From Candidatus Poribacteria bacterium (lineage in GTDB: Bacteria > Poribacteria > WGA-4E > WGA-3G): a stretch of 64,000 nt of DNA. Each line of letters starts with the position of its first letter. Within the stretch, counting starts at the first letter, position 1. A program made the position numbers and the translations under genes. The stretch spans positions 192,001 through 256,000 of the forward strand of contig OZ219752.1 in NCBI GenBank assembly GCA_964291315.2. The letters run 5' to 3'. Under the pieces are notes generated by a model. The model searched no databases, was not told the DNA's origin, and saw nothing but the letters and a program-made list of their open reading frames with translations. Of this stretch, positions 47,079-64,000 are shown one piece after another.

Positions 47079-47134
47079 CAAAACAGAACCTGCCCGCAAA
47101 AATTGCCGTGATGAAGACGGGAGGTAAGGATCCT

Positions 47135-49522
47135 ATGGAGCGTTCTCGATTTAAGGTCGGGTTGCGAGGTCAACAGATTGTCCTCTTTCTGTTAGTTGCC
47201 CTGATGCCGTTGTTTGCTGTTTCATTAGTCATAAAAATTCTTGGGGAGAATGCTCTCAAGGACAATGTTGGAGAAAGCCTCGTACTCCTTGCCGAAGAAA
47301 AACTTGCACGCGCAGATGATGCTATCTTCCAACGGATCGCAAACATTCAAGCGGAGCTGCCGAACATCAAAGCAGCGGTTGTGCGATCGAATAGTGCGCA
47401 AGGCCAGCAAGCAGTATTTTTGAGCGTATGGGCGCGACTAGAAGACAGTGTTCGTTTGCTTGAGACTTATGCTGGCTATAAAACTGAGGTAACGATCACA
47501 AATGCTTCGGGCTACGTCCTACGCTCGAACAACCGACAGTTGGATTACGACACAACAAAGAAACGTCCGTATACCATAAAAGACAAGAAGTGGTGGAAAA
47601 GAGCTTACAATAATGGAATAGGCTACCAATTTGTGGAAGATGTCATTTATGATAGGGTGCGCGGGATATACATTCTGCCAATCGCGTTCCCTATACGCAC
47701 AGATGTTAAGATTTCTAGTTCGCGACAGGAAAAGAATACAGTCGGGGTGCTCAGAACAATTTTGTTGCTGCCTGAGCTTGCCAGTTTAGTCAAGGCGCGA
47801 GGTGAGCTAGCGGGAACATATACCGTTTTAACGAATGATTCTGGTAAAATCATAGCAGCTTCGGCTGAAAGCGGATATCGTATAGATAATTACATGGAGA
47901 TGAATAATGCTGTAGAAGAAGCAATTATTGAGGGGAAAAAGGGCAGTAGTGGGAAGTATTATGACTATGAATCGGACGGTGAAACGGACGCCCTCGGTGA
48001 AGAGCGTGTCTACGGTTGGGCGCGGACTCGGGCTTCGACTGCCGAACCCTGGAAGGTACAACAGAATTTTAGCAATTGGATACTCTTTATTTCTCGTCCT
48101 ACCTCTTCGGCTTACGCCGGGGTCGTTAAGCTAAGTAGGTACATTTTTTATGTTACCATTGCATCAAGCGGTATCGTTGTAATTATTGCCTGCTGGGCTG
48201 CCCAAAGGATAGCAAGACCGATATTGGAAGTGGCGGCGGCAGCGGACAGCATTGGACAAGGAGAATTTGACAGTCAAATTCGCGTTCAGAGCGATGATGA
48301 AGTCGGAGTACTCGCCGAAAAATTTAATGAAATGCGACACAACCTCAAAATTGCGGTTGAGAAACTAAGGCAAGAAGAGAAAAAGCTTACCGCTATTGTT
48401 GAGAACCTCGGTGAAGGGCTTGTTGTTGTTGAACTCGATGGACAAGTGTTATATGTTAATCCTGTAGCTGAGCGCCTTTTGGATATTGGAAGAACTGCTG
48501 GCTATCAAAATTTTATCGATGTTGATACGGAAATCGGCACGATCACTTGGAGGAAGCGATTAATCGGCGCAGCAGATGTGACTGCACATACAAAAACGGT
48601 TGATCTAAAAATCTTGTCCTCTGCACCGCACCGGATAGAGCGTCACCAAGCAATGATTGCCGAGATGGAAGTCAATCGGAATCACTCAGATACTGAAAAG
48701 CGGGTGCTTCGGATTATAGCTAGTCATTTTTCTGATGAGGCTAATAATGTGGCAGGAACTGTTTATGTCTTTGATGACATCACACATCAGCACGAAATAG
48801 AGCAGATGAAATCGGAATTCGTTTCATTGGTGTCCCATGAATTGCGGACGCCCTTAACCTCTATTATCGGATTTATTTCGCTGATACTTGATGGAAAAAC
48901 AGGGAGAATAAATCAGAAACAGTATGAAAGTTTGACTCGAGCACACCGCCAGTCAAAGCGCCTCGCTGACCTTATCAACGATTTGCTTGATATCTCCCGC
49001 ATTGAGGCGGGACGTATTGAGATGAAGCGGGAGCAGGTCCAAGTAGACCGGATCGCTAGACGGAGGATTGAAGAACTCCGCCCGCAAGCGGATGAAAAAG
49101 CTATCGCTTTGTTATTGGATGCTAAACCGGGCCTGCCGGTATTGATTTCCGATGCAGATCGGATTGGACAAGTCTTTATTAATCTCATCGGAAACGCGAT
49201 TAAGTTTACCCCCTATGGTGGGAAAGTGACGGTGAGAATATCAACATCTCCGCGGAATGTAAGCCCTGCCGAGGGGATTCATGTTGAAATCATTGACACG
49301 GGCCCCGGCATCCCGCCTGAAGACCGCGAAAAAGTTTTTGATAAATTCCAGCAACTCAGGAACGATCGAACGCAACAGCAGGGCGGCACCGGATTAGGGC
49401 TCTCAATTGCCTCTAGGATAGTTGAAGCGCACCGAGGAAGACTATGGGTCGATACCGGTGATAACGGTCAAGGCTGCAACTTCCAATTTTTTATCCCGAG
49501 AGGACAAGAGGAAAATGGCTGA
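47135..49522 (+). CDS. Cache-HAMP-PAS sensor histidine kinase
   Basis: Two TM helices around a periplasmic domain, HAMP, PAS, SHELRTPL, NAIKFT and GTGLGL. Confidence 0.93.
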   Translation: MERSRFKVGLRGQQIVLFLLVALMPLFAVSLVIKILGENALKDNVGESLVLLAEEKLARADDAIFQRIANIQAELPNIKAAVVRSNSAQGQQAVFLSVWARLEDSVRLLETYAGYKTEVTITNASGYVLRSNNRQLDYDTTKKRPYTIKDKKWWKRAYNNGIGYQFVEDVIYDRVRGIYILPIAFPIRTDVKISSSRQEKNTVGVLRTILLLPELASLVKARGELAGTYTVLTNDSGKIIAASAESGYRIDNYMEMNNAVEEAIIEGKKGSSGKYYDYESDGETDALGEERVYGWARTRASTAEPWKVQQNFSNWILFISRPTSSAYAGVVKLSRYIFYVTIASSGIVVIIACWAAQRIARPILEVAAAADSIGQGEFDSQIRVQSDDEVGVLAEKFNEMRHNLKIAVEKLRQEEKKLTAIVENLGEGLVVVELDGQVLYVNPVAERLLDIGRTAGYQNFIDVDTEIGTITWRKRLIGAADVTAHTKTVDLKILSSAPHRIERHQAMIAEMEVNRNHSDTEKRVLRIIASHFSDEANNVAGTVYVFDDITHQHEIEQMKSEFVSLVSHELRTPLTSIIGFISLILDGKTGRINQKQYESLTRAHRQSKRLADLINDLLDISRIEAGRIEMKREQVQVDRIARRRIEELRPQADEKAIALLLDAKPGLPVLISDADRIGQVFINLIGNAIKFTPYGGKVTVRISTSPRNVSPAEGIHVEIIDTGPGIPPEDREKVFDKFQQLRNDRTQQQGGTGLGLSIASRIVEAHRGRLWVDTGDNGQGCNFQFFIPRGQEENG

Positions 49523-50759
49523 AACAATTTTAGTTGTTGATGATGATCTAGACATTCTTGAGCTGCTCAGGATGAACTTGGAACCTGAGGGATACGATGT
49601 ACGGACCGCGAGTGACGGCAAGCAGGCAGTGGAAGTCGCCTTCGTGAACCCACCGGATCTTATTCTTCTTGATGTCATGATGCCGCATAAAGATGGCTTC
49701 CAAGTCATTGAAGAACTGAAAACCAGGGAGGAGACTAAAACTGTTCCCGTTATTCTCCTCACGGCGCGTGGCCAAACGGAGGACAAGGTTCAAGGATTAG
49801 ATGCCGGTGCAGATGATTACATTACTAAACCGTTTGATCTCCCCGAGGTGACAGCGCGGGTTAAGGCGGTTCTCGGAAGAACACAGCCCATCAAATATAT
49901 CAATCCGCTTATGCGTGCAATGGGGGCTGGATTCAACGAGGCAGGCATTCAACAGCTCGCTGGACATCTGCAAGCTGCCGCTGCTATTCAGAAAAAGCTG
50001 TTACCAGAGCGAGCCCCTGATTTTCAAGGGTTTGACATCGGTATCCTTCTTCAGAGTTCTATGTCAGTTTCTGGAGATTTCTACGATTTCATTCCGTTAA
50101 GTGATACACGCCTCGGGGTCGTCCTTGCTGATGTCAAGGGAAGCGGAATCCCCGCAGCACTTTTGATGGTGATGATTCGTACAGCGCTGCGTCTACTCTG
50201 TCGGGAAGAGGAAGATCCTGCTTTAATTCTCAAACGGATTAATGATTTGGTTGTCCGGGACACTGAGGCGACCCTCTTTGCAACAATGATTTATGGGGTA
50301 CTGGACACGGCGACTTCCACCTTCGCCTATGCTAACGGTGGACACTGCCACCCGTTGCACCGGAAAAGTACGGGGATAATAGATGTTTTAAAAACGAGCA
50401 GCATGTTGGTTGGTGCATTTGAAGAAGCGGTGTTTGCAAGTAATACCTGCCGCTTAGCCCCGGGGGATATTGTTGTTTTCTACACAGACGGTATTACTGA
50501 AACTAACGGTGGCGATGCCCCGAGGCTTCATCAAGATAAGGGAGCATTGGAAAATTCAGAGGAAGCTAACGTATGTCAGGCAGCAACCCCGGCGGATATG
50601 TTTTATGGTCAGCATCAACTTGCTGCCTGCGTTTCTAAAAACGCTGAATTGTCTGCATCGGCATTATGTGAGGCAATTGTCGAAGACTTATCCGTGTTTT
50701 CTGGAAGCACAGAACCTCATGACGACAGAGCTTTAGTTGTGATCAAACGCAACGTTTGA
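49515..50759 (+). CDS. Receiver-PP2C (RsbU/SpoIIE-type) phosphatase
   Basis: Receiver domain followed by SGDFYD, DVKGSG, YTDG and DD; start overlaps the kinase stop. Confidence 0.93.
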   Translation: MAETILVVDDDLDILELLRMNLEPEGYDVRTASDGKQAVEVAFVNPPDLILLDVMMPHKDGFQVIEELKTREETKTVPVILLTARGQTEDKVQGLDAGADDYITKPFDLPEVTARVKAVLGRTQPIKYINPLMRAMGAGFNEAGIQQLAGHLQAAAAIQKKLLPERAPDFQGFDIGILLQSSMSVSGDFYDFIPLSDTRLGVVLADVKGSGIPAALLMVMIRTALRLLCREEEDPALILKRINDLVVRDTEATLFATMIYGVLDTATSTFAYANGGHCHPLHRKSTGIIDVLKTSSMLVGAFEEAVFASNTCRLAPGDIVVFYTDGITETNGGDAPRLHQDKGALENSEEANVCQAATPADMFYGQHQLAACVSKNAELSASALCEAIVEDLSVFSGSTEPHDDRALVVIKRNV

Positions 50760-57239: not shown

Positions 57240-60200
57240 GTGAAATTGACCGAAAACCGGGCCCGCTCATTACGGAGAGGCGTGAAACGAAGTGGAACGG
57301 TGATCAGATTCAATAGACTAAAAATCATTTTTCTTACCTTCTGCTTGTGCGTCCTGCCACGTTCAGGAAATACAGCGCAAGGATCCCCGGAGAATAAAAC
57401 AGGTGTTCTCGAACTACCTACCTTTTCTGTCCTTCAAAAATCTGAATCCTTTGAAGTAAAAACGGGCACGCTTGAGTTTACGGTGAAGTATCCGCCAATT
57501 CTCCCGAACAGTGAACAGATAACAGCGAAAAGCGGGAAAGTTCTCGTGCGAGGTGTAGATTACCAAATCGATGCCTATTTGGGCAAAATCACTTTAAGTG
57601 AGCCGGATACTACTCTTGAAGCAGATCTACCCTATAGACTGACGATAAATTACTGGACGTTGCCCTTTGCGATAAAACAGGTTTACAAACGCGATCTTTA
57701 CGGTATAGGGGTCGGCTTGCAGCAAGAGGGCAATCAGCAGACAGGAATTAACGATCAACAACAAGGTTTTCTTGCGGATAATCGGCAGCCGGTAGCAGGC
57801 AACCAGTTAGAAGTTTCTGGCAGTCAGACGTTTGGAATTTCACTTGGTAGTGGCCGCGGTGTGACACCGAATCAGGAGCTGCGGATCAACGTAGAAGGAA
57901 AAGCCTCTGAGAATATTAGTGTATTGGCAATGCTATCCGACCAAGATTTACCTATCCAGCCTGAAGGCACAACAGAAAATATACAAGACATCGATCAGAA
58001 ACTAATTCGTATCAGACATCCAAATATGAGAGGGACATTGGGAGATTTTGAAGGATCGCTCGGGCCGTCAGAATTTATCTTTTTCCCTCGTGCCTTAGAA
58101 GGTGTGCAAGTTGGAGGTAATTTTAATTGGATAGACTTCCATCTTATTCCGAGCGCAATTCCGAAAGGACAGTCTACTAGCTTAGTTCTCCGGGGCGAAG
58201 AAGGACGTAGCGAATATCGACTGACAGTTGATGGGCAATATGTCATTGTGAAAGCCGGCAGCGAAATCGTCTGGCTGAACGGTGAAAGAATGAGACGTGG
58301 CAAAAATAACGATTATGTTATCCGTGAATATGGAGACCCTATTGTCGAATTCAATAGCAAGCACCTGATAACAAGCAACGACGTGATTCGCATTGACTTT
58401 GAATACATTCCCGAGGAGCATGCTTATCAACAAAATCTTTACGGTCTCAGTAGCATCTTCACGTTACCTGGCGATTGGTTTTCTTTCGGGGCCTCCTATG
58501 CGGTTGAGACAGACCTGAGTCAGCCGGAGCAGGCTTTAATCACTTTCGCAGAGGAGGATTTAAAAGCGCTCCGCCAAAATATACTCGATCCCGATGGAGA
58601 CGGAGCAGCCCTCATAGCCCCTCAAAAACATAGTGTATGGGGACTCGAAAGCCGCCTGAATATCACTGAAGAAGCTCATATTCAAGGGGAACTCGCTTAT
58701 AGTGCTGTTGATAAAAACACCTATTCTACGGCTGATCGCAAAGAGGTGAGTCGGGCATGGAAACTCATCGGTTATGCAGACTGGGACTTTGCGGCCTGGA
58801 CAGACAAATTTCGTCCTAAGTTAATAGCGAACCTCGATGTTCGCTCAATGGACGCTGACTTTGTACCTGTTGGTGCTTCAAGCACCAATCGCACCCGTTC
58901 CCGGTATGAGACACAATACGCTAAAGAGGGGTTTGATGATGCGTTTCTGCTGGATATCGCCGGTTCCTCGCGAGCTCCGAGAGATGAGCAGACGATGAAC
59001 TTCGACATCCGAGTACTTCCAATCAACTGGCTCGAAGTTGATGCCGGTGTCGGTAGGAGCCAAGCGAAAGATTCTCGGCTTAATAGTCAATCAGCAACAA
59101 CGCGTGATAATTACAATTGGGGTATAAATTTTAATCGCAGTCGACAGCCGGCGGTCAGTCGCTTGTCAGCCTCGGTGCCCGGAGAAAACGTTTTTGAACG
59201 TCGCAGCGGGGTCCCGGCAAAGGACACTCGACGACCAACAACTTTAAGAAAGTGGATCCCGAACCTGCGCTGGGACGACTATAGAAGTAGCTCGCGTGTG
59301 GAGAGTATCAATTCGACCTCAAGACAATTACAGCAAAAGTCTCGGCAAGAAGGCAATCTCTCTTATCCTATTGGTCCCTTCAGGATTATGGGTACACTCG
59401 GCAAAGTGGAATCAAACGAGGCGCTCAACGCGGCACTTAACCGGAAGCGGAACCGCACAATCGGGCGCGTCACTCTCGCGAAAGATTGGGCATCCTTCGA
59501 TACCCGTTATGAGCTTGAAGAGGCTTTTAAAAAAGAACCGTTGCTTACTCTCGATACTGAACCTATCGGTTTGTCCGATTGGCAACTAAGCACTACCGCT
59601 CGAACGTGGAAAGTTGGGGCTTTCTCACAACAAGAGTCTTTCCTCAAAGGTGTTGTCAATCTAACAGCGAACGTCACACGTCGCGTGTTGAAGAGCCACA
59701 ACGCTCTCGGGGCCAAGACGACAACCCAACTCGCTGATATTAGTCTTCAGTTGACCCCCTTAAGCCGCGCAATTGACATGGAAATCACCTACGAATTGGA
59801 CAAAAAACTGACTAGCCAACGCCGTGAAGTCTACACTAACATTCATCCTCACACTGGTTTCCCAATCCGACCGGGTGAAGGATATTACGTAAAATTGGAC
59901 GACCTGCACTACATAGAAGATCCAGAAGAAGGCACCTATATCAAAATCTACCAAAACGTCGGTGATAAACCGACGACAGCAGTAGATGCAGAGTTTCGGT
60001 TGCGTTTTCAACCTCGTCAATTTTTTGCACGCCGTGCCCGTGAACGTCAAAAACAGCAGCATGCTACGATGCAGAGTCGTGATAGCTTACGTCCAAAGCC
60101 TGTGCCCGACCTACCAAGCATCAACGACCAACAATCGAAAGTTTCTGATAGTCAACAATCATCCCGCCTAGAACGGTTTCTGAGTGCGCTAAGAGGCCAA

Positions 60201-61001
60201 ACTCGATTCTGGGTGACCGAGGAACAGGAGGTAGAGGATGCGGTGTCGCTGTATCTGCTTCAAAACTTACAAGGTTCAGATACGCTTTTTGGACGGTTGA
60301 ATCAACACCACAGGCTTGAATTTTCACCCTCACCCGCTTTCAGCTGTGAATTCAACCTTCGTACTGGTGAAACACTCAATCGCCGGGTCAATAACCAAGA
60401 ACGTCAGAGGCACCATCAAACGTGGGATCTTACTGTGTCTGTTAATCCGACTCAACGAATGGCTGTCAATGTGAACTGGGAGCAAGGTTGGGAAACCGAG
60501 AAATATAGTCAATTCGATGTTGACAGACTTAATCAAGGGGCCGGTACTCTGGCAAGTGAAACGGCGTCTTTGCCAATATCTATCTCCGACCTACGCCAAT
60601 TTGAACGGATTACTGAATTGGGACTCCGATACGAGCTGAGCAAATCGGTACGATGGAGCGGCACTGCCGGATACAGATGGACAGCTGACGAAGAGCAGTT
60701 AGATGAGGAACCCGAAGCTAGAACGCGTACCCTTTTCTATGAGAACCGTGTTGTATATAGTCTTGTCGGTAAAGGCCGCATTGACATCAATTACAAACTC
60801 GGCTACGGTGAAAGTCGCGGCAGTATACCGTTTGCACAATATACTTTCTATGAAGGCATCAGTCATGAAGTTCGAAAAACTGCTGATTACAGGTTGCGGA
60901 GATTCACCGATCTCTTGTTTCGACTCAATTACCGCTTGCTTTCAACCAAACAGCGCAAGCCTGAGCACCGCTTAGAAATGAAGGTGAGTGCAGAACTTTA
61001 G
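57240..61001 (+). CDS. Large outer-membrane beta-barrel protein with SprA-like N-terminal motifs
   Basis: Signal peptide; RGVDYQIDAYLGKI and SDQDLPIQPEG; long amphipathic beta-strand region. Confidence 0.7.
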   Translation: MKLTENRARSLRRGVKRSGTVIRFNRLKIIFLTFCLCVLPRSGNTAQGSPENKTGVLELPTFSVLQKSESFEVKTGTLEFTVKYPPILPNSEQITAKSGKVLVRGVDYQIDAYLGKITLSEPDTTLEADLPYRLTINYWTLPFAIKQVYKRDLYGIGVGLQQEGNQQTGINDQQQGFLADNRQPVAGNQLEVSGSQTFGISLGSGRGVTPNQELRINVEGKASENISVLAMLSDQDLPIQPEGTTENIQDIDQKLIRIRHPNMRGTLGDFEGSLGPSEFIFFPRALEGVQVGGNFNWIDFHLIPSAIPKGQSTSLVLRGEEGRSEYRLTVDGQYVIVKAGSEIVWLNGERMRRGKNNDYVIREYGDPIVEFNSKHLITSNDVIRIDFEYIPEEHAYQQNLYGLSSIFTLPGDWFSFGASYAVETDLSQPEQALITFAEEDLKALRQNILDPDGDGAALIAPQKHSVWGLESRLNITEEAHIQGELAYSAVDKNTYSTADRKEVSRAWKLIGYADWDFAAWTDKFRPKLIANLDVRSMDADFVPVGASSTNRTRSRYETQYAKEGFDDAFLLDIAGSSRAPRDEQTMNFDIRVLPINWLEVDAGVGRSQAKDSRLNSQSATTRDNYNWGINFNRSRQPAVSRLSASVPGENVFERRSGVPAKDTRRPTTLRKWIPNLRWDDYRSSSRVESINSTSRQLQQKSRQEGNLSYPIGPFRIMGTLGKVESNEALNAALNRKRNRTIGRVTLAKDWASFDTRYELEEAFKKEPLLTLDTEPIGLSDWQLSTTARTWKVGAFSQQESFLKGVVNLTANVTRRVLKSHNALGAKTTTQLADISLQLTPLSRAIDMEITYELDKKLTSQRREVYTNIHPHTGFPIRPGEGYYVKLDDLHYIEDPEEGTYIKIYQNVGDKPTTAVDAEFRLRFQPRQFFARRARERQKQQHATMQSRDSLRPKPVPDLPSINDQQSKVSDSQQSSRLERFLSALRGQTRFWVTEEQEVEDAVSLYLLQNLQGSDTLFGRLNQHHRLEFSPSPAFSCEFNLRTGETLNRRVNNQERQRHHQTWDLTVSVNPTQRMAVNVNWEQGWETEKYSQFDVDRLNQGAGTLASETASLPISISDLRQFERITELGLRYELSKSVRWSGTAGYRWTADEEQLDEEPEARTRTLFYENRVVYSLVGKGRIDINYKLGYGESRGSIPFAQYTFYEGISHEVRKTADYRLRRFTDLLFRLNYRLLSTKQRKPEHRLEMKVSAEL

Positions 61002-61054
61002 AAACGCCTCCGAAAAACAGTAGATTAGGGGCAGTTTTAAGGGGTTTTCTGCAA

Positions 61055-61083
61055 ATTAGGCATTCCATCCGTCCTGTTAGCGC
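61055..61083. terminator. Hairpin between convergent genes
   Basis: TGTTAGCGCG-ttttgtcgg-CGCGCTAACA. Confidence 0.6.
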
Positions 61084-61114
61084 GTTTTGTCGGCGCGCTA
61101 ACAAGATACATTAA

Positions 61115-63127
61115 CTAATCTTCGTCTGGAGGCACGATATCATAAATGAACCATATACCTTCCACTTTTCGCATTTTGACAGATGCCTCTGGAGGAGATA
61201 ACATCTGTGGCAACTTCAACCGGAAATGGAATTCATCCCCTACATGTTGATGGTTCAATACCTCCACCTCGCTGAACGCCAGACTGAGCTGCTCGCGCGA
61301 CTCTTCTGGGATGTCCTGACTTGCAAGCTCTTCCATGGCACGCCCTATTACCATTGGGTGCAGCGCATCTGAGTCAAGATTCTTAAGTGCTGTCACGAAA
61401 GCGTTCATCAAATCTTCTGCAGATTTGTATGAATGGGTTGGAGCTTCTTCTTTCCAATCCTGCATCTGCCCCGGTTCAACAGAGATTTCTGCCAGAAAAC
61501 CGTTGATGTTCCGTTGCTCGTTGAACCAGCTACCGGTAACCCCCAACTTAAAGGACTGCCCCTGCGGAAAATAATACTCAATGACGCGTCTATCTTCAGA
61601 TGGAACGTCCCATGCAGAGATAAGCGCCCCTTGTGGCGCTCCTTTCGTAGGGAGTTTGCTATTGCCATCATACAGATCAAATGACCCCATGGCTCCGGCA
61701 TCTCCAACTTGGAGTGAGATAGTGAGCCAACCGCCGTTTTCAAATGCTGTCGCATCAATCTCGACAACAGTATAGTCTTGATAGCCGGGTTCTGGAGTCC
61801 GAAAGGTACTCAAGACTTTCTGCTCCGGATTGTCGTTGGTAAGTACGAGTTTCAAAACGTTGGTCTTTGGGTCATCTGCTTTAAGAACAGAATCCCAATC
61901 GATGGACAAAGGTACCGAGGTATCTTCACGGAGTCCCGGGCGTTTGCCCGCTAAAGATCTCTTAAGAAACATTCTGTAGTGTTCATTGGGCTGCAGCCTG
62001 CTTAGTTCATTGGTCGGCAGCCTGCCCATCAGTTCAAGCTTTGGTGAGATAACCATCGAATCTGACGGGGAGTGCTCCTTCCAACCTTTCATGATCACTT
62101 GGATCAGTGGGTGCGTTTTGTCAAACTGCTCGAACCCCTGATGAAATCTCTTTTCAACGTATGCTTGCTGTTCGGGTGTGCGTTCTAATGTGACATTCGA
62201 CACCCAGATGTTGATGAAATTTTCGTTCAAGAATTCAATAATTCGGTTATTGGAGAGGACACCTGCCCTCAGGCTTTTGCCGCTCCCTCAGCACGCCTCA
62301 TCCGCAAGGGGACCGTCTAAAGAGATGGCGTGAATAGGTTTCACTTGCGTCTGTGCCATCTCCAATGCCTCTTCCGGGGATGTCCAATTAATCTGTTGTG
62401 ACTTGTAGAACCGTTGTATGAGTAGACGTTCAGCTGCTTCTTGGGTAATAGATTCTACGTATTCGACATCTGGCAGGAAATCTCTCGTCCCGGCACGGAG
62501 TGCCATCTCGGAGCAAAAACCTGAATCGGTGCCGAAGTAATTTTTGTCTTTCTCTTTCTCGCGTTTAACATCAAAGTTTACTATGCCTCCGGGGACGTAC
62601 ATCTCGAAAAAAACGACTTTCTCTTCGACTCGGTCAATCACAAGATGTCCTGTAAATTGCGAAGGAGTAAACCGTCCATCTTTTAGTTTGAACTCCGCAT
62701 GAATGCGAAACACAATGTCAGCGAATCTGTCGTTGTAAGCACGCAGGCATGCCCATAAGCCAGATGAGTCTCCCGAGAGCTGTAAGTTTGGATTTGGGTG
62801 CAGTTGCCTGAGCAGGGTCATCACGCCTTCTTCTTTAACTTGCCAGAGTTCGCCAACCGCAATTGTCTTATCAGGCAGAAAATCTTGGAAAACCGAGGCT
62901 GGATACTGCTTTTCTGGTTCAGCAACGCGCAAGTTTGCCAAGGTCTCCCAATTCACGTGGAAATTGAACACGGTATGCTCGATCGGTGCAATGGACCCCT
63001 TCACTAATACCTCTGACGTGCTGTCAAGCTCAAGTTTGATTGTGTTATTAGCTGCCGAGTGGTTATCGGCATTCAGTTGTCCGTTCATCATAATCAAGGT
63101 CAGAAAACCGAAGGCTAAGATTTTCAT
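61115..63127 (-). CDS. Selenoprotein N (SELENON)-like secreted selenoprotein, 670 aa, Sec at codon 280 (TGA at 62288-62290)
   Basis: AGGAGG RBS and signal peptide; FRIHAEF, FTPSQFTGH and GPLADEAC-U-GSGKSLR...LNENFINIW match SelN FRIHAEF, FSPAQFTGH and [16 protein letters not shown]...LNESFISTW; the two track ORFs are in frame with no other stop. Confidence 0.88.
62255..62287 (-). promoter_or_regulatory. Putative bacterial SECIS element
   Basis: 17 nt after the UGA: stem GAGGGC-[AGGU]-GUCCUC with a G-containing apical loop starting after 23 nt. Confidence 0.7.
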
Positions 63128-63149
63128 TTTCAAGCCTCCTTGTAAAACG

Positions 63150-63244
63150 TTCTCGTTAAGGATCAGTGTTGGAATAATACCACGAATACCACTTCTATCG
63201 ATAGATAAAACAGTTCCTCTTATTTTCTTTCGATCATTGGTCAT
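63150..63244 (-). pseudogene. Relic 5' end of a patatin-like phospholipase
   Basis: AGGAG RBS then MTNDRKKIRGTVLSIDRSGIRGIIPTLIL, resembling the patatin (V/I)LSIDGGGIRGIIP motif. Confidence 0.6.
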
Positions 63245-63510
63245 TTTGAAACTTCTCCTATTACGTTCGGGTGCTGCTATGCACTACGCAACCTTCGGAC
63301 GACGGATGAGACAGTACAGTATTGCCCCCTATTTTAGCGCTCGGATAGGTATCCACTTATGCGCTTTGACGGCGGTAAAAGAGATTGGGGCGTGCCCCAA
63401 TATGGCAACACAGATAGCCTGCAACGTGCAAGGCACGCACAGGCGCGGAAAAACCACAACAGCAGCAAACACTGACGCTGTTTGGTGAATAAATATGTGA
63501 ATTGAAATAC

Positions 63511-63660
63511 TTATCTTATGTAAATGGGGGGTAGGTAGTCTGTTAACTTATAGATAACAGGACGCTGACTACGGAAAAGCACGCGGCGACAGCACACAGG
63601 CCGCAGAAGGACATCTGAAGCCTCTTTACTCATCCCGAAATCCATATGAAAATACAGCAT
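63511..63660 (-). CDS. Putative leader peptide (uORF, 49 aa)
   Basis: MLYFHMDFGMSKEASDVLLRPVCCRRVLFRSQRPVIYKLTDYLPPIYIR*; paralog of 31086..31244. Confidence 0.5.
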   Translation of the reverse strand: MLYFHMDFGMSKEASDVLLRPVCCRRVLFRSQRPVIYKLTDYLPPIYIR

Positions 63661-63715
63661 TGTTTCTACCTCTATATCAAAACTGAAATATTGATAAACG
63701 CTTTAGATAATGTTA

Positions 63716-63746
63716 ATTATACACCTATTTTAATTTTTTTTGTCAA
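63716..63746 (-). promoter_or_regulatory. Sigma-70-like promoter upstream of the leader / SelN-like locus
   Basis: TTGACA-19 nt-TATAAT with a TG extension; homologous to 30404-30432. Confidence 0.55.
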
Positions 63747-63827
63747 CTTTTTTCCAAAAAAATAGAAAAATTATATTGTGCTTGCGCGAATCTAAAAAAG
63801 ACTAGGGGTTACGCGTGGAGCTCTTTT

Positions 63828-63851
63828 GTAACATAACCTGTTAGGTTGTGC
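63828..63851 (+). repeat. REP-like palindrome
   Basis: GTAACATAACCTGTTAGGTTGTGC. Confidence 0.7.
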
Positions 63852-64000
63852 AATGGCTCCGCTCGTTTTTTCGCAGTTTCCGTAGTTAAAAGATCGTTCT
63901 ATGCTCAAAGATGCATAAGTGCTATTGAGAACACTTAAATACCCAATCCTTTCTGCAAATTCCGAAATAGTTAAGTAGTTTTGCGGGGAGTGTGCTACGT

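Follow-up and report, generated by a model that had tools for sequence, protein, structure and literature searches.

The 64,000-nucleotide stretch of a Candidatus Poribacteria genome analysed here (the window; positions 192,001 to 256,000 of contig OZ219752.1, assembly GCA_964291315.2) contains on its reverse strand, at 61115..63127, a real and conserved gene for a predicted selenoprotein related to the selenoprotein N (SelN) of animals. It is concealed as two open reading frames (ORFs) separated by an in-frame UGA. The best explanation for the whole of the data, which we hold with high confidence, is a single gene of a secreted or periplasmic bacterial SelN family, with the UGA decoded as selenocysteine (Sec). 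Directly established within this explanation are the continuous frame, the homology, a conserved UGA, the existence of Cys forms, an RNA under constraint, the Sec machinery and the (predicted) fold.

Reading frame and relationship to selenoprotein N

The upstream ORF of the six-frame list (62288..63244, reverse strand) terminates in ...SLDGPLADEAC followed by TGA, with the Cys codon TGC at 62293..62291 and the TGA at 62290..62288. When TGA is translated as U, 19 codons (GSGKSLRAGVLSNNRIIEF) bridge it to the second ORF (61115..62230, reverse strand) in the same frame and without another stop. The reading is 709 amino acids long if it starts at ATG 63244 and 670 if it starts at ATG 63127. The latter is likely the gene start, giving a product that opens with MKILAFGFLTLIMMNGQLNA, and a Shine-Dalgarno-like AAGGAGG was read directly at 63141..63135 of the reverse strand, 7 nt 5' of this ATG. 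The coding sequence would then have 670 codons plus the stop at 61117..61115 and one in-frame UGA; residue numbers below follow the 709-residue reading (P0001). An earlier note made from the sequence of the window had described one frame split by a UGA and a 670-residue product with a C-U motif. The ORF list and the translation match its description of the frame letter for letter, the motif stands at 62293..62288 and the AAGGAGG backs the start. None of the 40 differences listed (of 95) against contigs from four runs of one study, possibly the window's own source, lies at 62288..62290, which adds little.

The protein carries, in this order, the motifs FRIHAEF, PSQFTGH, C-U-GSGKSLRAGVLS and LNENFINIW. 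Their animal counterparts were confirmed in entries retrieved for comparison, FRIHAEFQL in P0034 and PAQFTGH in P0027, P0029 and P0030, and several animal SelN entries stop at ...WGALDDQSC, truncated where their own Sec codon stands. In the large protein search eukaryotic SelN was matched at E values of 1e-11 to 1e-18, and full-length bacterial relatives showed 46-57% identity. Among the eukaryotic matches there are proteins whose source names them Selenoprotein N and proteins with EF-hand Pfam domains. BLASTP against mammalian SelN gave an E value of 1e-22 with 26% identity over query residues 88-347, the UGA being inside the aligned span, and identity to animal SelN was 24-30%. An hhalign comparison of 15 bacterial with 9 eukaryotic sequences reached a probability of 99.9% and an E value of 6e-36 over 251 columns. 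The UGA occupies the column of the animal Sec: the window protein reads A-C-U-G, most of its paralogs S-C-U-G, and the animal entries end in ...DDQSC there. Beyond it, BLASTP aligned the post-Sec block GSGKSLRAGVLSNNRIIEFLNENF to the corresponding stretch of P0034 (of the ...LNESF type). Homology to SelN on both sides of the UGA, the motifs in the order of the animal protein and a UGA exactly on the Sec position had all been claimed from the letters of the window, and all three held up in these comparisons.

Animal SELENON/SEPN1 and the window protein have in common the N-domain with FRIHAEF and PxQFTGH, the Cys-Sec-Gly motif in the identical alignment column, the post-Sec block GSG(K/R)xLRxxVL...LNExF and the thioredoxin-like domain; the predicted extracytoplasmic site of the window protein is the topological equivalent of the lumen of the endoplasmic reticulum (ER). 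They also differ. An EF-hand is present in animal SelN (Pfam domains on P0027 and P0029), whereas none was found in the window protein with Pfam at E up to 1. Animal SelN has a type II membrane anchor, while the window protein starts with a short, signal-peptide-like segment of ~20 residues (MKILAFGFLTLIMMNGQLNA, 63068..63127, reverse strand), read by eye and modelled by AlphaFold2 (AF2) as a lone low-confidence helix, and merely ~35 residues separate this segment from the SelN homology region. Two additional C-terminal domains are found in the window protein, and its putative recoding signal is a hairpin within the ORF, in contrast to the selenocysteine insertion sequence (SECIS) of animal SelN in the 3' untranslated region. 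Judged by the sequence features that define SelN, the protein encoded at 61115..63127 is a bacterial variant of SelN.

Conservation and proposed decoding of the UGA

A scan of one genome per species found 246 related stretches, the best 80 of which were kept and make up 74 loci, 72 of them titled Poribacteria and 2 'uncultured bacterium'. Comparison by tblastn with residues 271-360 gave 157 high-scoring segment pairs in these 74 loci and the window, with TGC-TGA at the aligned codon pair in 156 and TGT-GGC in the remaining one. The interrupting stop was TGA in 156/156 interrupted copies and never TAA or TAG, and many of the 74 loci contained 2-5 tandem paralogs. In addition, a metagenome scan recovered 21 loci with GC contents of 45-76%, and in 21/21 the TGA comes directly after a Cys codon. 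In 17 of these the TGA is followed by 94-115 in-frame codons of the pattern GSGKxLRAGPLS...LNxxFVNxW...YPVD, corresponding to the second half of a thioredoxin fold (of the other four, 3 run into the end of the contig and one, L122, is far longer). Forms with Cys at the Sec column (C-C-G/A-S/T-G-K) were found in P0068, P0075, P0085, P0119 and P0081. A tblastn search for exchange at this codon had been suggested as a check of the selenoprotein assignment, and its outcome, together with the CC forms among database proteins, agrees with it.

The genome of the window (4.40 Mb, 4 contigs, 95% completeness) contains the four components of the bacterial Sec machinery that the earlier note had asked for: selA (515 bits), selB (329 bits, above the curated cut-off), a single tRNA-Sec with anticodon tca (selC) that adjoins selB, and selD (357 bits) with one in-frame TGA inside. 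The last two observations come from C4:721940-722863 for selD and C2:61507-63538 for selB and tRNA-Sec, and selD would by its TGA also code for a selenoprotein. In the phylum, selB was present in 167/176 genomes. Among 1159 stop-to-stop frames with 400 codons or more in the window's genome, 237 (~20%) are closed by TGA, and therefore the code is the standard one with no general reassignment.

By the usual rules of distance and loop, a bacterial SECIS element is a stem-loop that follows the UGA closely and has G/U in its apical loop. A candidate of this type, GAGGGC-AGGU-GUCCUC, lies at 62255..62270 of the reverse strand, its stem opening 18 nt beyond the final base of the UGA, and its loop AGGU includes G/U in keeping with the bacterial features. 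For an alignment we took 133 distinct stretches of 63 nt that surround the UGA. The hairpin was drawn both by the minimum free energy (MFE) structure of the single sequence and by the RNAalifold consensus. Its positions were paired in 97.0% of the cells, versus 48.6-82.5% when the 3' partners were slid, and none of 500 shuffles attained the observed pairing or covariation score. Synonymous codons are frozen from -1 to +12 around the UGA (62252..62293, reverse strand). Arg+7 is AGG/AGA in 133/133 stretches (17% in the flanks), Leu+11 is CTC in 132/133 (11% in the flanks), Ser+2 is AGC/AGT in 119/119 (10% in the flanks) and Cys-1 is TGC in 133/133. Codons 5' of -1 and 3' of +13 are free to vary, the fixed rare synonyms being confined to -1..+12. 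This synonymous-site constraint is a stronger argument for an RNA element than the pairing and covariation. Furthermore, a 7-bp stem with the loop GGUC was found at the same place in 19 of the 20 evaluable metagenome loci (L115 deviates and L109 is cut), and the stem of L119, GCGAGCG...CGCUCGC, differs from GAGAGCG...CGCUCUC by an A-U to C-G replacement in which both sides have changed.

The alternative in which the TGA at 62290..62288 is a true stop would leave either two proteins, a secreted N-domain of 279 residues and a C-terminal protein started at TTG 62230, or a decaying gene. Standard gene calling yields exactly these two ORFs, the halves are stored as separate entries in public protein sets, and TGA is a normal stop in this genome. 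The division of the usual gene call had been anticipated in the note, and in the databases the break falls on the Cys itself: 86 of the 119 stored proteins that cover the N-domain terminate precisely on the Cys preceding the Sec column, and so do 112 of the 113 newly stored matches to a divergent member of the family, P0124. However, a true stop does not account for the 19 inter-ORF codons, conserved as protein and matching animal SelN, and it would sever the thioredoxin fold between strand 1 and helix 1. The exclusive use of TGA among the interrupted copies and in the 21 metagenome loci, the uninterrupted reading of the forms with Cys, Gly or Trp sense codons and the presence of Sec machinery in the same genome also stand against it. 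We consider termination at this codon very improbable.

Size, distribution and origin of the family

A profile search over 1.84 billion cluster representatives matched 1182 representative clusters at E <=1e-3, 728 at <=1e-10 and 235 at <=1e-30. A homology search with a 20-row alignment gave only 3 matches and no taxonomy. P0124 used as query retrieved 258 proteins, and all 4 of those with an organism name came from Planctomycetes/Planctomycetota. Two of these four are labelled 'selenoprotein N' by the automatic annotation of the Joint Genome Institute (JGI), and since this pipeline labels them the similarity to SelN has already been met by machines, if not described. In the window's own phylum 131/176 species genomes matched at E <=1e-10, distributed by family as 109/111, 10/11 and 11/29, with 0/24 across another eight families. 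Genomes of the phylum have as many as 17 matches each, most among the matches listed having exactly one TGA, and the window's genome has a single SelN-like copy. The 64 other genomes of the window's genus all have matches, mostly 5-17 each and often in tandem arrays, and the window's genome is smaller (4.4 Mb). The titles of the relatives, Poribacteria being a sponge-associated group, bear out the guess of the earlier note that the host is a sponge symbiont. The gene is not an isolated peculiarity of such a symbiont, as that note might have suggested, given the 1182 clusters, the Planctomycetota-named members and the Cys-TGA pair in all the metagenome loci.

The domain composition varies within the family. 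Loci L014-L027 were matched up to query residues 701-709, so the C-terminal alpha/beta domain is confined to the closest orthologs. In P0109 (truncated at the Sec codon) and P0075 (of the CC form) a SelN-like domain stands behind regions 2 and 4 of an extracytoplasmic function (ECF) sigma factor, and in P0133 it is joined to leucine-rich repeats. The C-terminal beta-sandwich by itself is attached to ECF sigma factors in P0024 and P0137 and to an S9 peptidase in P0168. The ECF sigma fusions are a hint that the SelN-like domain may serve as a sensor, either anti-sigma-like or of extracytoplasmic redox state. P0018 (541 residues, 7 member sequences) opens with MRAGVLS... past a Sec codon, continues with the sandwich and then with a second N-domain that ends in ...DDESC, and is possibly a tandem fusion with two Sec. 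Matches of ~3.1 kb were considered as double-length fusions and rejected, because L029 read with TGA as U is an ordinary single gene that ends in ...EEVNDH and a stop, followed by out-of-frame sequence.

Unrooted trees were built from 256 profile columns that reach as far as the Cys. With FastTree (118 rows, 1 of 119 dropped for low coverage), a split of support 100 divided 48 rows, including all the named animal SelN, from 70 bacterial-type rows. A quick IQ-TREE analysis of 64 selected rows, including the 4 Planctomycetota-named proteins and omitting the other 58, set 20 eukaryote-like rows apart by a branch with an SH-like approximate likelihood ratio (SH-aLRT) of 100; the eukaryote-like label was assigned by motif and length, animal names being present on only 4 rows. 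The window protein was placed within a 28-row clade (support 97), and the other half held the Planctomycetota-named rows.

Poribacteria are sponge symbionts rich in eukaryote-like proteins, and the window protein could have been one of these, derived from the SelN of an animal (sponge) host by recent acquisition. The Poribacteria titles of 72 of the 74 relative loci are compatible with this. So are the single SelN reported from sponges in PMC3473315 and the description of SelN as animal-specific in Lobanov 2007 (PMC2375036). Nevertheless, both trees split the eukaryote-like rows from all the bacterial-type rows with support 100, and the window protein stands several nodes deep among the latter, with a sister clade that contains Planctomycetota-named proteins. 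The low identity of 24-30% to animal SelN, the lack of an EF-hand and a recoding signal of bacterial type, common to metagenome members across 45-76% GC, also argue against a host source. Since the window protein is nested in the bacterial radiation and the eukaryote-like rows are beyond the support-100 branch, a recent transfer from sponge to symbiont, one answer to the question of horizontal transfer raised in the earlier note, is unlikely, and we give recent acquisition from the host very little credence.

Transfer in the opposite direction can be considered for the eukaryotic family itself. In animal SEPN1 mRNA a hairpin, the Sec redefinition element (SRE), lies just 3' of the UGA (PMC12839072). 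In the window the SECIS-type hairpin overlies L-R-x-x-V-L codons that are homologous to animal SelN. Eukaryotic SelN might have come from the bacterial extracytoplasmic family, with donors of the Planctomycetota/Poribacteria type, and the animal SRE hairpin might be a remnant of a bacterial in-frame SECIS, a scenario that we regard as speculative and rather unlikely. If it were true, SelN would be a molecular fossil that records in a single gene how bacterial Sec decoding gave way to the eukaryotic kind.

Predicted fold, active site and proposed function

The AF2 model of the full-length protein was mediocre (predicted local distance difference test, pLDDT, 69) and had a signal helix, a beta-rich N-domain, a thioredoxin-like domain, a beta-sandwich and a small alpha/beta domain. 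A core model of residues 59-440 built with a 91-row alignment reached a pLDDT of 94.0 and a predicted template modelling score (pTM) of 0.90. In P0001 numbering, with all coordinates on the reverse strand, the N-terminal SelN domain with FRIHAEF and PSQFTGH, delimited by alignment to animal SelN, covers residues ~75-251 (62492..63022; core-model pLDDT mostly 94-98). The thioredoxin-like domain, identified with VIA-align and Foldseek, covers residues 279-435 (61940..62410) and includes C318-U319, encoded by the TGC-TGA pair (62288..62293) that is conserved in relatives. It is followed in the AF2 model by the beta-sandwich at residues 464-591 (YQDYTVVEIDATAFENGG..., 61472..61855), with weak Foldseek matches (E 1e-3 to 1e-2) to sandwiches of the PPC/collagen-binding and PliG types, and by the alpha/beta domain at residues 609-704 (61133..61420; pLDDT ~64-79).

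VIA-align with model residues 221-377 gave Z scores of 13.2 with DsbH (2ju5), 12.5 with 3f9u, a thioredoxin domain related to cytochrome c biogenesis, and 11.6 with AGR3 (3ph9), and Foldseek concurs with a thioredoxin fold for the C-terminal half of the core. Thioredoxin folds dominated both lists, and model residues 10-200, the N-domain, were hardly covered. C318-U319 is located between strand 246-251 and helix 262-269 (core-model numbering), in the loop that enters helix 1, i.e. the classical active-site position. A search of PDB sequences with the whole window protein found no solved relative, and a profile search of them matched 3ira (E 0.006) and 2lst (E 0.09) weakly. An ungapped count from the VLSxxxVxxLLNxxFV block would put U319 on the first Cys and the Gly on the second Cys of the CxxC of 3ira and 2lst, and on this register the Sec is proposed as the attacking residue and the adjacent Cys as the resolving one.

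Proteins of the DsbH/Thioredoxin_7/AGR2-AGR3/TXNDC12 group (2ju5, 3f9u, 3ph9, 1sen, 3ira, 2lst) have a like fold (Z 10-13, root mean square deviation 2.4-4.8 Å over 116-132 residues), are extracytoplasmic or ER-resident and have in common with the window protein a VLSxxxVxxLLNxxFV-like block after the active site. The window protein differs from them in having C-U-G-S-G in place of the CxxC/CxxS motif of the Thioredoxin_7/DsbH type, in the lack of a Pfam match and in the large N-terminal domain packed on the fold. Mammalian thioredoxin reductase has a like vicinal Cys-Sec with Gly (Gly-Cys-Sec-Gly) and an expected selenenylsulfide cycling, on a flexible C-terminal tail of a flavoenzyme, whereas in the window protein the pair is inside the active site of a thioredoxin fold. 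The Cys-Sec centre of that enzyme is named as a comparison for SelN in PMC12839072.

In a set of 20 orthologs of the 557-residue type from genomes of the same genus (L088-L107) the Sec codon is TGA in 11 and a Gly codon in 9 (GGA in 5, GGC in 4). One of the Gly forms also swaps the Cys for Ser, and among the 8 that retain Cys, 6 encode it by TGT. A Trp form, C-W, was found in P0016 and its subgroup. Replacement of Sec by Gly or Trp, each one base from TGA, instead of Cys suggests non-redox descendants of the fold. Glycine-containing homologs of the selenoprotein FmdB in Planctomycetes are described in a study of Planctomycetes on Porphyra (PMC4807772), which makes FmdB another example of Sec/Gly exchange within this broad lineage. 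Read-through of the UGA by Gly or near-cognate Trp or Cys, giving a full-length protein devoid of selenium, is in our view scarcely credible, because although Gly and Trp are tolerated at this codon, as natural sense variants carry them (GGA/GGC in 9/20; P0016), the genome maintains the full Sec system, otherwise a costly one, with a selD that also has an in-frame TGA, the rare fixed synonymous codons after the UGA form a SECIS-like hairpin, and the ~20% share of TGA among the ends of long frames speaks against general reassignment.

Under the selenoprotein explanation we infer Sec insertion, export, redox chemistry and a substrate as follows. SelA, SelB, tRNA-Sec and SelD of the same genome would decode the UGA at 62290..62288 as Sec, directed by the SECIS-type hairpin at 62270..62255, which lies in frame over the L-R-A-G-V-L codons. 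In the exported protein the N-domain may be the substrate-binding module that holds the substrate. The selenolate would attack an oxidised sulfur of the substrate (a disulfide or a sulfenic acid), the adjacent Cys would resolve the adduct as a selenenylsulfide, and an external reductant would recycle the active site. Matching chemistry has been proposed for animal SelN and for thioredoxin reductase at its GCUG end.

Several observations weigh against this explanation or parts of it. The Sec in the product is a prediction from sequence, and so is the signal peptide, which was read by eye. Neither Pfam nor NCBIfam had a family that matched the whole window protein at E up to 1, so that the thioredoxin assignment rests on predicted structure. 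Gly and not Cys replaces Sec in 9/20 species of the 557-residue group, indicating that the fold can persist without the redox pair. As for the hairpin, the 72-nt stretch folded by itself did not exceed shuffles in stability (z -0.06; 91/200 at least as stable), two-sided changes occur at just 1/6 pairs (7 cells), and the count of two-sided pairs was matched by 374/500 shuffles and that of further pair types by 487/500. Because the hairpin overlies conserved codons and the sequences are related, pairing alone is no proof of selection on the structure. A search of 60000..64000 against Rfam, which includes SECIS families, was negative at E up to 5. Finally, the neighbour genes gave no functional hint.

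These neighbours in the window (an NHL-repeat protein, a ROK kinase, a galactokinase, a histidine kinase with a response regulator and a 1253-residue protein) are convergent or unrelated. The 1253-residue ORF at 57240..61001 of the forward strand is convergent with the SelN-like gene and matched no Pfam family at E up to 0.001. At 47108..50759 (forward strand) there are a Cache/HAMP/PAS histidine kinase and, after it, a response regulator that has a phosphatase domain of the SpoIIE (PP2C) type, and 3' of these come the galactokinase, the ROK-family protein and the NHL-repeat protein, an ordinary context. No common family was found among 10 flanking ORFs taken from 5 metagenome loci, in which ORF picking was crude at high GC.

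Full-text literature searches turned up no paper that describes a bacterial SelN; the contents of BSepDB and supplementary table S9 of PMC4807772, with selenoprotein candidates of Planctomycetes, may already list members of the family. Neither SelN nor a CUG-type family appears in the main text and family table of a 2026 review of prokaryotic selenoproteomes or in the BSepDB paper. A precedent for a supposedly eukaryotic family with Sec in bacteria is given by the Sec-containing SelO-like proteins reported as the first of their kind by deep-Sep in 2025 (PMC12013277), with a SECIS-like structure right after the UGA. SelO is a protein family unrelated to SelN, which is not mentioned in the main text of that paper.

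SelN is mutated in SEPN1-related myopathies and its chemistry is, to our knowledge, poorly defined. A soluble bacterial homolog with a predicted signal peptide and natural CC variants would offer a workable system for the structure of SelN, its redox chemistry and substrate trapping. If the ECF sigma fusions do act in redox sensing, animal SelN, for which a sensor role has been proposed, would be a parallel. These bacterial genes overturn the view of SelN as animal-specific and raise the question of transfer between domains. The main interest of the gene resides in its value as a model for SelN, in this evolutionary question and in the size of a family that has been concealed by split gene calls and that, with up to 17 profile matches per poribacterial genome, nearly all having one TGA, would rank among the largest bacterial selenoprotein expansions.

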